A stretch of DNA of 41,409 bases, taken from NCBI RefSeq assembly GCF_003334765.1, contig NZ_QOWT01000034.1; one strand, written 5' to 3'. The notes beneath the pieces are model-generated. The model was not told where the DNA came from. It made no database searches and worked only from the letters and a program-made list of their open reading frames with translations. This document shows, piece by piece, positions 24,128 to 29,498 of the stretch. A program made the translations under genes and the position numbers. Within the stretch, counting starts at the first letter, position 1, and every line of letters begins with the position of its first letter. Source of the stretch: Escherichia coli (GTDB lineage Bacteria > Pseudomonadota > Gammaproteobacteria > Enterobacterales > Enterobacteriaceae).

Positions 24128-24610
<483 letters not shown>

Positions 24611-24644
24611 CCGCGCATTATACATACTTAACCACCGAACGCAA
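24611..24644 (-). promoter_or_regulatory. S10 operon promoter
   Basis: Minus strand TTGCGT (24639-24644), 16-bp spacer, TATAAT (24617-24622), GCGCGGG discriminator (stringent-type). Confidence 0.6.
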
Positions 24645-24676
24645 GCGTATTGCTAGTAAAGTAAACAGCCTTCGGG

Positions 24677-25096
24677 TTATCTCTCAAGTTCGTTCAGTGC
24701 ATTTTTGACACGCTCTCTTAAACCGGCTTTCTCTTCGCTTTCTTCCACAGTATTTTCTTCGTCTTCAGAAGAAGAGGGGGCATTCTCAACCGCGACGCCT
24801 GGGTCATCTTCCTCCTCGACGGATTCGACGACGGGGAGTGGCTGTTTTTTGAAGAAATAGTGTTGTGTTGATTGTTTAAAAGCGGGCGTTTCAGCCTCTA
24901 CAGTGACTTCGGCTTTTACTATCCAAAGCACCCATAGCTGCCTGGCATACCCACCAACCAGCACCATTCCTGCAAACCACAGGCAAATCAGTAATAAACA
25001 AATTACATATATTATGGTGCTGTGTTTTTGTCGGGAGAAGATACCAGGGTGACCTGTTTCTTTCTGCTCACGCGCGGCGATATAGAATTCAAACAT
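24677..25096 (-). CDS. gspB: GspB, type II secretion accessory protein (139 aa, single TM, acidic C-terminal region)
   Basis: ORF 24677..25096 minus; hydrophobic segment IIYVICLLLICLWFAGMVLVGG and Glu/Asp-rich tail; adjacent downstream of gspA. Confidence 0.8.
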   Translation of the reverse strand: MFEFYIAAREQKETGHPGIFSRQKHSTIIYVICLLLICLWFAGMVLVGGYARQLWVLWIVKAEVTVEAETPAFKQSTQHYFFKKQPLPVVESVEEEDDPGVAVENAPSSSEDEENTVEESEEKAGLRERVKNALNELER

Positions 25097-25097
25097 G

Positions 25098-26567
25098 TCA
25101 TTTCCCCTTCACTGTTGTTTCCGGGGAAATATTTGCTTCATCCCGATATAAGTAGGCACTCTCCCCTGCCACCTGCCAGAGATGTACTAACGTTGAAAAG
25201 CCAACAACACCGTCAGTTTTCAAGTGGTGGCTTTTTTGAAATTGCTTTATTTTTTCTACCAACAAGGGACGCCACTCCGCCGAAGGTTCTGTCGAAATAT
25301 GCAATGCGCGGTTTAACATCGTTTCCAGCCAGAGAATCTCTTCCTCGCTGCTATCACGCGTAATGGTACTCTCCCCTTCCGGCGACATTTTCCACAACAG
25401 AAGATAATCACCCGTCCATACCGACTCAAACCATTTATGTGTCAGCGTCCACGTTTGCTGACCTACGAGGACATCAACGCTAGCCTCACCGACGCGAACG
25501 ACCACAACAGGCAATTTTTTGTCCCCGACTTTAAGCGATGCGATCCAGGGCAAATTCTGATCTACCAATGTTTGTAAAGAAGCATTCCCACTTTTACATG
25601 CCAGCCCCGCTCTTACTGCCTGATCGCACCAGGCCGAATCAGCTGGGACCTCGTACCCCCATACGCCGTATAACACGCTTAGCGCCTCACTATCGCGCAT
25701 CACCACATGAGCAATATCCTTAGTCATATCTTGTTTAACTACTGGCGTTACGGGTATCAGCCACGCAGGAACGGGTAACGTAGCTGTAAAAGAGGACAGC
25801 AGTAGCCAACCACAGGTAAGAGCGATAATGGTTCCACTCATCACCACGGCAAGCTGCATTTTCCGGGGGCGGTTATCACCCAATATGCGGTAAATCATTC
25901 GCCATTGTTTTGCTGTGAAAACGCTGGTCTGCTCGGCTTGCTGTAATAAGCGAATTGTTTCGCCGGCAAGCGCCAGCTTTCTGCGATCGCCCCGACATAA
26001 TAAAGCTATCCGTTTCAGAACTCTGGCGGTTAAAAGGAGATCGGGTTGGTCAATATTCTGACCTTCAAGGATGCTTGCCTTAAGTTCGTGCTCCGTCAGA
26101 CGTCCTATCGAGACAAGTTCAATGCCCTGTTTTTTAAAATCACGTTCGACTTTTCGATCGGGTCTGCCGATCAGCAAAAATTGACCGTCAGGAATAAGAG
26201 ATATTGCGCGTTGGAGATCATCAAGTATGCGGCGGTGATTCAGGTGAGCATTTTCAATAATAATAAGAGGGCAGCGACTATCAGTTCGATGAAGCGCATG
26301 CAGTAATTGCCCCGCCATCTCATCTCGCGTCCAGGCGCTGTCACGGCAGCCCTGTTCAGCCGCGTTATCGTCGGTAACGATCCATGCGGCCTTACCTTGC
26401 CAGGAAACAACGAGGCTTAAAGTAATCACACGGCGATGTTTATCTTTTTGCAGTTGCTGCGCCAGCCAGGTTTTTCCACTTCCAGCCTCACCCAACAAAT
26501 AGCATAGACGCCAGGTTTGACGTTTCTCACACAACCAGGAAAGAATAACTTCTCTTCTCGTAGACAT
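25098..26567 (-). CDS. gspA: GspA, type II secretion ExeA-like ATPase (489 aa)
   Basis: ORF 25098..26567 minus; Walker A GEAGSGKT near the N-terminus, central TM segment, C-terminal periplasmic domain; SD AGGAAG upstream. Confidence 0.85.
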   Translation of the reverse strand: MSTRREVILSWLCEKRQTWRLCYLLGEAGSGKTWLAQQLQKDKHRRVITLSLVVSWQGKAAWIVTDDNAAEQGCRDSAWTRDEMAGQLLHALHRTDSRCPLIIIENAHLNHRRILDDLQRAISLIPDGQFLLIGRPDRKVERDFKKQGIELVSIGRLTEHELKASILEGQNIDQPDLLLTARVLKRIALLCRGDRRKLALAGETIRLLQQAEQTSVFTAKQWRMIYRILGDNRPRKMQLAVVMSGTIIALTCGWLLLSSFTATLPVPAWLIPVTPVVKQDMTKDIAHVVMRDSEALSVLYGVWGYEVPADSAWCDQAVRAGLACKSGNASLQTLVDQNLPWIASLKVGDKKLPVVVVRVGEASVDVLVGQQTWTLTHKWFESVWTGDYLLLWKMSPEGESTITRDSSEEEILWLETMLNRALHISTEPSAEWRPLLVEKIKQFQKSHHLKTDGVVGFSTLVHLWQVAGESAYLYRDEANISPETTVKGK

Positions 26568-26746
26568 AGAACTTCCTGTTTTAATTATTGATTATCCTTA
26601 ATCATAAAAATAATGTATGTATTTATTAATTAAATACATATTACTAATATAAATAAATTTTGCTTGATTCATGCAAGCGGCATTAATACTATTTATACTA
26701 ACGTCAATATACAACCCACCCAATCTATTTTATTAGAACATACATC
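26568..26746. promoter_or_regulatory. AT-rich divergent control region between gspA and gspC (H-NS-silenced promoter region candidate)
   Basis: 179-bp intergenic region, visibly about three-quarters A+T, with a 10-bp perfect inverted repeat TATGTATTTA/TAAATACATA (26616-26640). Confidence 0.5.
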
Positions 26747-27562
26747 GTGCCCACACTACGTTTCCCCTTCCATCTGGCGAATCATAATAAAGATGCTGCC
26801 ATCAATATATTGATTATATTTATAAGCATAGGGTCGATTATTTTTAATGTGAATTATTTCCATACAACTATAGTTAAAAATGGACAGATCATTAATCAAC
26901 CAACAAACGCATTTCAGTCTGATTTCAGCCTTGCCGCTTTATGGCGTAACGAAAATCATGCTGGGGTAAAAGATGCAAATCCCGTGGCAGTTAATCAGGA
27001 AACACCTAAGCTCTCTATAGCGCTTAATGGCATTGTACTCACATCGAATGATGAGACTTCTTTTGTCTTAATTAATGAGGGGAGCGAACAAAAGCGATAC
27101 TCCCTCAACGAAGCCCTTGAGTCAGCGCCGGGAACGTTTATTAGAAAAATAAATAAAACCAGCGTTGTGTTTGAAACTCACGGGCATTACGAAAAAGTAA
27201 CTCTCCATCCAGGGCTACCTGACATCATCAAGCAGCCTGATTCAGAAAGTCAAAATGTACTCGCTGATTATATTATCGCCACGCCTATACGTGATGGAGA
27301 ACAGATATACGGGCTTCGATTGAACCCTCGTAAGGGCCTCAATGCATTTACCACCAGCTTGCTACAACCAGGGGATATCGCCCTCAGGATCAATAATCTT
27401 TCGCTGACCCACCCTGATGAGGTTTCACAGGCATTAAGTTTACTGCTAACTCAACAAAGTGCTCAGTTTACAATTCGTCGCAACGGCGTACCCCGCTTGA
27501 TAAATGTTTCCGTCGGGGAACTTACAGGAATGAATGGACTGCGTCATGAAAGGACTCAATAA
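26747..27562 (+). CDS. gspC: Type II secretion protein GspC (271 aa)
   Basis: ORF 26747..27562; N-terminal TM segment [15 protein letters not shown]; first gene of the gspC-O array. Confidence 0.85.
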
Positions 27563-29498
27563 AATCACCTGCTGCTTGCTGGCAGCACTACTCATGCCTT
27601 GTGCAGGACACGCTGAGAACGAACAATACGGCGCGAACTTCAATAACGCCGATATCCGCCAGTTCGTGGAAATAGTGGGTCAGCATCTTGGCAAAACGAT
27701 CCTGATCGACCCTTCGGTACAGGGAACCATTTCCGTACGCAGTAATGATACGTTTAGCCAACAGGAGTACTACCAGTTCTTTTTAAGTATTCTTGATCTT
27801 TACGGTTATTCCGTGATCACGCTGGACAATGGTTTTCTGAAAGTGGTTCGCTCAGCTAATGTAAAAACATCGCCAGGGATGATTGCTGACAGTTCTCGTC
27901 CAGGCGTAGGTGATGAGTTGGTCACCCGAATTGTACCGCTTGAGAACGTTCCTGCTCGTGACCTGGCCCCCCTGCTCCGCCAGATGATGGATGCGGGTAG
28001 CGTCGGTAATGTTGTGCATTATGAACCCTCCAACGTTCTTATTCTGACCGGTCGTGCCTCCACCATTAATAAACTGATTGAAGTCATAAAGCGCGTTGAT
28101 GTCATCGGCACAGAGAAGCAGCAAATTATTCATCTGGAATATGCGTCAGCGGAAGATCTCGCCGAGATTCTTAATCAATTAATCAGCGAAAGCCACGGTA
28201 AAAGCCAGATGCCAGCCCTCCTCTCCGCGAAGATTGTGGCGGATAAGCGAACCAACTCTCTTATCATCAGTGGACCGGAAAAAGCACGCCAGCGCATCAC
28301 TTCATTACTGAAAAGCCTTGATGTCGAAGAGAGCGAGGAAGGAAATACCCGGGTTTATTACCTGAAATATGCTAAAGCCACGAATCTGGTGGAAGTGCTA
28401 ACCGGTGTTTCCGAAAAGCTGAAAGATGAAAAAGGGAATGCGCGTAAGCCCTCCTCTTCTGGCGCGATGGATAACGTCGCCATTACCGCCGATGAACAGA
28501 CTAACTCTCTGGTCATTACCGCTGACCAGTCCGTCCAGGAAAAACTCGCCACGGTAATTGCGCGTCTGGACATTCGCCGTGCACAGGTGCTGGTTGAGGC
28601 AATCATCGTTGAAGTTCAGGATGGAAATGGACTAAACCTCGGCGTGCAATGGGCGAATAAAAACGTTGGCGCACAGCAATTTACCAATACCGGATTACCG
28701 ATTTTTAACGCTGCGCAAGGTGTGGCTGATTATAAAAAGAATGGTGGGATCACCAGCGCGAATCCTGCCTGGGATATGTTTAGCGCCTACAATGGCATGG
28801 CCGCAGGCTTCTTCAATGGCGACTGGGGAGTACTGCTTACCGCGCTGGCCAGTAACAATAAAAATGACATCCTCGCCACCCCAAGCATCGTAACGCTGGA
28901 TAATAAACTCGCGTCCTTCAACGTGGGGCAGGATGTGCCGGTGCTATCCGGGTCACAGACCACTTCAGGGGATAACGTCTTTAATACCGTCGAACGCAAA
29001 ACGGTGGGGACAAAACTCAAAGTTACTCCGCAGGTCAATGAAGGCGACGCGGTGTTGCTCGAAATAGAGCAGGAAGTCTCCAGCGTTGACTCTTCCTCTA
29101 ACTCGACGCTCGGCCCGACGTTTAATACCCGTACTATTCAAAACGCCGTGCTGGTCAAAACCGGTGAAACGGTGGTCCTGGGCGGATTGCTGGATGATTT
29201 TTCTAAAGAGCAAGTGTCAAAGGTTCCTCTGCTTGGCGATATTCCTTTAGTGGGGCAACTCTTCCGCTATACCTCCACCGAGCGCGCTAAACGCAACCTG
29301 ATGGTATTTATCCGTCCGACGATTATCCGTGACGATGATGTTTATCGCTCACTGTCAAAAGAGAAATACACCCGTTACCGTCAGGAGCAACAACAGCGGA
29401 TCGACGGGAAATCAAAAGCGCTGGTTGGCTCGGAAGATTTGCCGGTGCTGGATGAAAACACGTTCAACAGTCACGCCCCTGCGCCATCGTCACGGTGA
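27546..29498 (+). CDS. gspD: Type II secretion outer-membrane secretin GspD (650 aa)
   Basis: ORF 27534..29498; start placed at ATG 27546 ([23 protein letters not shown] signal peptide); secretin C-domain motifs ([15 protein letters not shown]). Confidence 0.9.

Follow-up and report, generated by a model that had tools for sequence, protein, structure and literature searches.

The gspA/gspC spacer of Escherichia coli is an H-NS- and SlyA-controlled promoter region that is already known, and that is re-identified here in a window of 41,409 nucleotides (contig NZ_QOWT01000034.1 of assembly GCF_003334765.1), the window being the whole stretch of DNA analysed. The account that we consider likely is that the spacer is the control region described in K-12, where H-NS, once nucleated, spreads along about 330 bp of DNA with overlapping promoters, where SlyA, and reportedly LeuO, act as counter-silencers, and where a perfect inverted repeat probably arose incidentally, or belongs at most to a degenerate binding zone. 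Sequence features, composition, statistics and conservation were computed here; silencing, occupancy and SlyA binding are taken from the literature. Which promoters belong to the reported 5' ends, and that the palindrome has no function, we infer. What is added to the published picture is small: the gspC -35/-10 pair is an element conserved across genera, the reported gspA 5' ends would agree with -10 hexamers on the minus strand, which overlap the -10 of gspC, and no segment of the spacer is less conserved than the one that holds the palindrome.

How might the region work? An A+T-rich block of about 330 bp, made up of the spacer and the 5' end of gspC, would hold the sigma-70 promoters of gspAB and gspC-O, set back to back and in part overlapping. 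H-NS would nucleate and spread on the same block, and both operons are silent under laboratory conditions, as is established in the literature. Silencing would be relieved by H-NS antagonists that bind inside the spacer, namely SlyA, seen by EMSA, and LeuO, reported from SELEX. Seen from the start codon of gspA, the palindrome comes before the promoter core; it belongs to the 5' leader of gspA (+24 to +72) if the ends at -97 to -121 are start sites, and otherwise covers the -35 predicted for that gene. Most probably it arose incidentally from low-complexity A+T-rich sequence, and quasi-palindrome template switching may have sharpened it; at most it would be part of a degenerate H-NS/SlyA zone, and it is probably not a dedicated operator.

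The locus and its A+T-rich block

The spacer is the 179 bp from 26568 to 26746 between two divergent start codons. On one side gspA, the first gene of gspAB, runs on the minus strand from 26567 to 25098 as an open reading frame of 489 amino acids; on the other, gspC, the first gene of gspC-O, runs on the plus strand from 26747 to 27562 (271 amino acids, GTG start). The 451 bp round the spacer are 100% identical to E. coli K-12 records, and in an identical K-12 record the RefSeq gene order is rplC, rpsJ, gspB and gspA on one strand, with gspC, gspD and gspE divergent. The open reading frames and the RefSeq annotation of that record show that the gene names and the extent of the spacer had been given correctly in an earlier, sequence-only reading of this DNA. 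From its precomputed Pfam domains (GspA_C39-like, AAA_22 and PG_binding_1), the predicted product of gspA is an ExeA-like ATPase and peptidoglycan-binding assembly factor of a type II secretion system (T2SS). No obvious Shine-Dalgarno sequence was found before the GTG start of gspC; the start context ATATC(G/A)TG, with GTG or ATG as the start codon, recurs in distant relatives.

The gspA/gspC region (window positions 26450-26900) is contained in 3141 of 5426 complete E. coli genomes. The other 2285 have no match to it, so that the control region of the cryptic T2SS-alpha is frequently lost; some retain a gspA fragment only, APEC 102026 being an example, with 11% coverage of 26450-26900. A search of genome contigs with GspA returned only two contigs, both of them contaminant E. 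coli sequence.

The composition of the spacer is extreme. The window as a whole has an A+T content of 50.5%, gspA one of 51.0% and gspC one of 57.6%; the spacer has 77.1%, which bears out the earlier statement that it is markedly richer than the flanking genes. It is essentially the A+T-richest stretch of its length in 41 kb, since only 0.03% of 179-bp windows are as rich. The comparison set beforehand as the one that might refute an unusual composition was with the local intergenic average. The 12 other intergenic regions of the window have a mean of 59.4% (sd 5.5), about 3.2 sd below the spacer, and the composition signal is therefore real. The next A+T-richest intergenic regions are the flanks of chiA, at 70% upstream (41023-41313) and 67% downstream (38161-38328); chiA encodes a chitinase thought to be exported by T2SS-alpha, and is likewise silenced by H-NS (PMC5797941).

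The richness had been placed in the spacer alone, and there the coordinates were too narrow. It continues into gspC as far as about 26900, with 67.5% A+T from 26747 to 26900, so that the block covers 26568 to 26900, that is, the spacer and the first 150 bp or so of gspC. This block corresponds to the H-NS silencing platform and to a published 'promoter island'. The further description of the spacer as curved DNA found no support. A wedge model, which is indicative only, puts the spacer at the 20th to 48th percentile of the window, and its four A/T tracts are without helical phasing.

That the spacer should be a substrate for H-NS had been proposed from its composition, with the suggestion that H-NS peaks be looked for at the locus. 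The proposal is right but already published, as both silencing and occupancy are in the literature. The gspAB and gspC-O operons of K-12 are described as cryptic and H-NS-silenced, and as derepressed in an hns mutant, in Francetic et al. 2000 as relayed by PMC5797941 and PMC2649431. Association of H-NS with the gsp locus in ChIP-chip is recorded from two studies (marks K and O), and there is an IPOD-HR occupancy peak in the spacer, whose authors remark that the precise location of H-NS was previously not known. A SELEX paper on the RpoD holoenzyme lists the spacer with an 'HNS' flag (PMC3946193). RNA polymerase holoenzyme SELEX peaks fall within the spacer and inside gspC, with RpoS and RpoF peaks in or near gspC. 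Finally, a published set of 78 promoter islands includes the locus (3453428_392, gspA(-)/gspC(+), H-NS mark K; Panyukov & Ozoline 2013).

The high-affinity H-NS motif tCGATAAATT (PMC2094087) was scanned for with a cut-off of at least 8/10. The best match in the spacer, at 26650 to 26659 on the plus strand (TAAATAAATT), scores 8/10, and three further 8/10 matches lie at 26802-26843. The 333-bp block thus holds 4 of the 43 matches in the window, where 0.35 would be expected, an enrichment of about 11-fold that partly reflects A+T content. No site of 9/10 or 10/10 was found in the scan.

Promoters and SlyA in the spacer

A predicted sigma-70 promoter for gspC, TTGATT-17-TACTAT, lies on the plus strand at 26664 to 26692, with the -35 at 26664-26669 and the -10 at 26687-26692 (PMC3946193). 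Its -35 and -10 parts, CTTG and a TAATAYTATT block, are kept in seven of seven distinct spacers, including those of relatives whose GspA is only 41-45% identical. Conservation across genera makes at least this promoter look selected, and not spurious.

For gspA, a table in PMC2760140 lists 5' ends at -97, -112, -121 and -236, that is, at 26664, 26679, 26688 and 26803 of the window; the reference number that the table gives for them resolves to an unrelated paper. Two -10-like hexamers, both TAGTAT, can be read on the minus strand at 26691 to 26686 and at 26700 to 26695, with a spacing of 9 bp. The first lies 7 nt upstream of the end at -112 (26679), and the second likewise 7 nt upstream of that at -121 (26688); the ends are themselves 9 nt apart. 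The hexamers would accordingly pair with these two ends, and the fit in spacing supports the ends as genuine start sites. The first hexamer overlaps the gspC -10 on the opposite strand, so that, if the pairing is right, the -10 elements of gspA and gspC overlap. A consensus scan also gives an alternative gspA promoter, TTAATA-17-TATGAT, at 26629 to 26601 on the minus strand, which is predicted in PMC3946193 as well. Its -35 hexamer (26629 to 26624) is inside the palindrome, and none of the 5' ends listed in PMC2760140 corresponds to it.

Two observations on neighboring sequence may be recorded here. The presumed gspC leader, 26699-26746, is almost invariant between E. coli and the E. ruysiae-type genomes described below. 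On its minus strand there are -35-like sequences, TTGGGT and TTGTAT, that would serve the -121 and -112 gspA starts, and such overlapping signals may explain the conservation of the leader. Further on, in the part of gspC that codes for the membrane anchor, a 14-bp perfect palindrome, ATCAATATATTGAT, is found at 26801-26815, at the reported -236 end of gspA (26803). It includes one of only three exact matches to the IHF core in the window (WATCAANNNNTTR), and two of the 8/10 matches to the H-NS motif.

The smaller inverted repeat that had been described as a hairpin, GCTTG/CAAGC with 5-bp arms at 26662-26666 and 26674-26678, is present in the sequence. It overlaps TTGATT-17-TACTAT, however, and is thus just the -35 hexamer plus promoter spacer of gspC. 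The spacer has 10 repeats with arms of at least 5 bp, against 5.3 in shuffles, and a 5-bp repeat is trivial. Might the repeat, with the T-run on the minus strand, form a small intrinsic terminator that insulates gspA from antisense transcription arising in gspC? A consensus scan does find it terminator-like on the minus strand (1 found, 0.3 expected). The stem, however, is only 5 bp with three G-C pairs, it overlaps the -35 hexamer, and it is of a kind common in the spacer; moreover, the repeat is broken in E. ruysiae, where CAAGC has become CAACC, and is unconserved in distant relatives. We regard a terminator here as extremely improbable.

SlyA is the only specific factor shown to bind the 179-bp fragment. 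Purified SlyA gel-shifts exactly this fragment (primers TC59/TC60) with an apparent Kd of 50-100 nM, and overproduction of SlyA raises gspCDEF 2.4-fold (PMC5797941). Binding of LeuO in the spacer is reported from SELEX. A candidate SlyA site of the form TTAN6TAA, TTATATTAGTAA, lies on the minus strand at 26641 to 26652, its center 79 bp upstream of gspA (PMC5797941, Table 3). It directly abuts the right arm of the palindrome, and is outside it. TTAN6TAA occurs once in the spacer, where 0.57 occurrences are expected by chance (P = 0.44). In E. ruysiae-type genomes the sole TTAN6TAA is TTAATGCGTTAA, which is the right arm of the dyad itself and resembles the leuO candidate site TTAATGCATTAA. Both haplotypes, E. 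coli and E. ruysiae type, therefore have exactly one TTAN6TAA, within about 10 bp of the dyad, a mild hint that binding of a SlyA-type protein there may have been maintained.

The palindrome: chance, descent and function

The palindrome is at 26616-26640, with the arms TATGTATTTA (26616-26625) and TAAATACATA (26631-26640) on either side of ttaat. It is a perfect, A+T-rich repeat of 10-5-10 geometry, with half-site ATGTATTTA and a single G·C pair in the stem, and 49 bp separate its left end from the start codon of gspA. It is thus present just as it had been described, about 50 bp upstream of gspA. As a single-stranded DNA hairpin it is weak (-5.9 kcal/mol, z = -2.3).

Is it more than chance would supply? 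The answer depends on the length of DNA considered. In 2000-5000 shuffles of the spacer, with loops of up to 5-20 nt allowed, perfect arms of at least 10 bp arose with a probability of 0.006-0.026 when mononucleotide composition was kept and of 0.012-0.036 when dinucleotide composition was kept. Against shuffles of the spacer the palindrome is nominally rare, then, but this does not hold once multiple testing is allowed for. The window has six distinct perfect repeats with arms of at least 10 bp, of which five are terminators with a G+C stem and a T-run, after mscL/trkA, rplQ, rpsQ, chiA and tufA. When the DNA was shuffled in blocks of 200 bp, so that local composition was retained, 0.48 such repeats arose per 41-kb window. 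One unexplained repeat in 41 kb is therefore compatible with chance, which supplies one about a third of the time.

No other match to the palindrome, with up to three mismatches, was found in the 41-kb window, including the A+T-rich DNA upstream and downstream of the co-regulated chiA, and half-site matches in the window number 14 where 8.1 are expected, which is about the chance rate. A metagenome scan for the 8-5-8 core gave 120 unrelated A+T-rich matches, the gsp loci being only two. Such palindromes are therefore common in A+T-rich DNA, and, the matches being unrelated, the scan is uninformative on a regulon. An Rfam scan of 26300-27000 gave sub-threshold noise only, with no family near threshold. 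The texts on the gsp locus that were consulted do not mention the palindrome. Set by eye against consensus sites for ArcA, NagC/Mlc, TyrR, LexA, CRP, ArgR and Fur, the palindrome fits the spacing of none, an inspection from which we conclude nothing.

What does the history of the spacer say? Five E. coli haplotypes, 97.3-100% identical, have two variable sites in the spacer. In four of the five the palindrome is invariant; in STLEFF_47 a T>C change at 26620 breaks the dyad. The next relatives, with GspA 75% identical, are Escherichia ruysiae, 'Escherichia sp. MR', E. coli H605 and unclassified Escherichia, and all 11 of these E. ruysiae-type or cryptic-clade loci share one haplotype across the palindrome segment. 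Between K-12 and the E. ruysiae type, identity is 99.7% in rpsJ, 71% in gspB, 77% in gspA and 79% in gspC. The whole spacer is 85% identical, its left part 89% and its right part, with the promoters and the gspC leader, 91.5%, and the segment that holds the palindrome and the SlyA candidate (26613-26652) only 66%. By these identities the flanks of the spacer appear more constrained than coding DNA, and the palindrome segment appears the least constrained of the spacer.

The dyad of the E. ruysiae type is AATGCATTTA-ttgata-TTAATGCGTT, in which 8 of 10 positions still pair. Two pairs are altered on both arms, one from T·A to A·T and the other from T·A to C·G. With six arm substitutions and the register held fixed, two compensatory pairs have a probability of about 0.03, in what is a single independent comparison. 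In free register, a dyad of 8/10 is found in 15% of shuffles, and simulations of neutral descent give P = 0.25-0.40. As there are only two independent haplotypes, E. coli and E. ruysiae type, the test for covariation is almost powerless, and as a sign of selection the compensatory changes may be suggestive at most. Compensatory changes can also be produced without selection, by quasi-palindrome template switching. The synteny gspD-gspC <> gspA-gspB-rpsJ also holds in six loci at a greater distance, with GspA 41-45% identical and spacers of 61-66% A+T; no counterpart of the palindrome was found in the spacers of these six.

Several features of the related loci are of interest in their own right. 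When 24440-27760 is aligned with the E. ruysiae-type locus L025, rpsJ and the rpsJ-gspB spacer are 97-99.7% identical, and gspB, gspA, gspC and gspD only 71-82%, with a sharp boundary at the edge of the gsp block. The sharpness of the boundary suggests that the whole T2SS-alpha cluster may have undergone an old allelic replacement or recombination. In L009, a locus of the same synteny with GspA 45% identical, there is an 18-bp perfect inverted repeat, TATATTTATAATTATTAT-N10-ATAATAATTATAAATATA, at positions 238-283 of the reverse complement of 2136-2500, in what appears to be the part of gspC that codes for a transmembrane segment; it is far beyond chance. In the metagenome contig L119, the gspC side of the spacer, palindrome included, is joined to two open reading frames at the equivalent of about 26607. 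One of these looks like a putative NlpC/P60 hydrolase, and both would seem to resemble conjugative-transposon genes. The junction is directly after the stop codon of an open reading frame, in a AAAAATAAT run. Most likely the two sides were wrongly joined in assembly through a low-complexity k-mer, the less likely alternative being a real insertion.

Could the palindrome nevertheless be the operator of a specific dimeric regulator, either SlyA, a MarR-family protein, perhaps as two dimers over 26616-26652, or another factor? From a position some 71 bp upstream of the point where gspC is predicted to start, and covering the leader of gspA or its predicted -35 hexamer, a bound factor could oppose H-NS at gspC and at the same time block or modulate gspA. 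The perfection of the dyad and its nominal rarity in shuffles of the spacer argue for this, as do the two double changes in E. ruysiae when the register is fixed. So does the proximity of SlyA, which binds the fragment and has its candidate site next to the right arm. Of the 12 positions of the SlyA consensus TTAGCAAGCTAA, the palindrome core TTATTAATTAAA has 7 and the published candidate 8, and in E. ruysiae the right arm is itself the only TTAN6TAA. Against an operator, the palindrome segment has the lowest conservation in the spacer, the dyad is broken in one natural E. coli haplotype, and the distant syntenic loci are without it. In free register the E. ruysiae dyad is unremarkable (P = 0.15-0.40), TTAN6TAA is at its chance rate, the 41 kb, the DNA upstream of chiA included, contain no similar site, and the geometry matches none of the known operators compared. 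We judge a specific operator to be unlikely. A fuller version, that the palindrome and the adjacent TTAN6TAA would be a two-dimer counter-silencing operator for SlyA or another regulator, kept by compensatory evolution between E. coli and E. ruysiae, and that the bound factor would switch on the cryptic T2SS-alpha and chitinase in a natural niche, activating gspC-O from about -71 and occluding the gspA leader or -35, is a speculation that we doubt. Were the palindrome truly an operator, it would offer a way to the natural signal by which type II secretion and the chitinase, both cryptic, are turned on.

The palindrome might act instead in RNA, as an A-U-rich stem-loop in the gspA 5' leader that affects the stability or translation of the mRNA. 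The ends reported at -97, -112, -121 and -236 do place it in that leader, and the hairpin is present in the minimum-free-energy fold of the K-12 leader; that fold, however, is no better than those of shuffles (z = -0.5), and the source cited for the ends is the one that resolves to an unrelated paper. The stem is almost wholly A-U, the E. ruysiae leader is predicted to fold without the hairpin, the T·G position would be an A·C mismatch on the transcribed strand, and no Rfam family matches. An effect through RNA is, in our estimate, very unlikely. A structured RNA or terminator at the palindrome was likewise considered and rejected, on the single G·C pair, the z of -0.5, the lack of an Rfam match and the unconserved fold.

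Relation to known control regions

The SlyA/RovA-type counter-silencing sites of the MarR family, such as those at the hlyE, slyA and leuO promoters, are likewise set in an A+T-rich target of H-NS. The gsp fragment is like them in being shifted by SlyA at 50-100 nM, in having a candidate TTAN6TAA, here beside the dyad, and in the 2.4-fold higher expression of gspC-O when SlyA is overproduced. It is unlike them in that the gsp palindrome is 10-5-10, and not the 12-bp TTAGCAAGCTAA core, and in that TTAN6TAA is found at the chance rate. A second parallel is the T2SS-beta of ETEC (yghJ-pppA-yghG-gspC-M), whose promoter Yang et al. reportedly found, in 2007, to be repressed by H-NS/StpA. There too a type II secretion operon is silenced by H-NS through an A+T-rich upstream region; the locus, however, is non-homologous, lacks a divergent gspAB and has another chromosomal position.

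Promoter islands, which occur in A+T-rich horizontally acquired DNA, are a further likeness; the gsp locus is listed as one of them (Panyukov & Ozoline 2013). Like them, the gsp locus has several reported gspA 5' ends and SELEX peaks for RpoD, RpoS and RpoF, and like bidirectional or overlapping promoters it appears to have -10 hexamers that overlap on opposite strands. Unlike promoter islands, it has one -35/-10 pair that is conserved across genera. The closest comparison is with the H-NS-silenced, divergent gspAB and gspC-O promoters of K-12, at the T2SS-alpha locus beside rpsJ: this is the same locus, without difference, and the published K-12 data on the binding of H-NS, SlyA and RNA polymerase concern the same 179-bp spacer.
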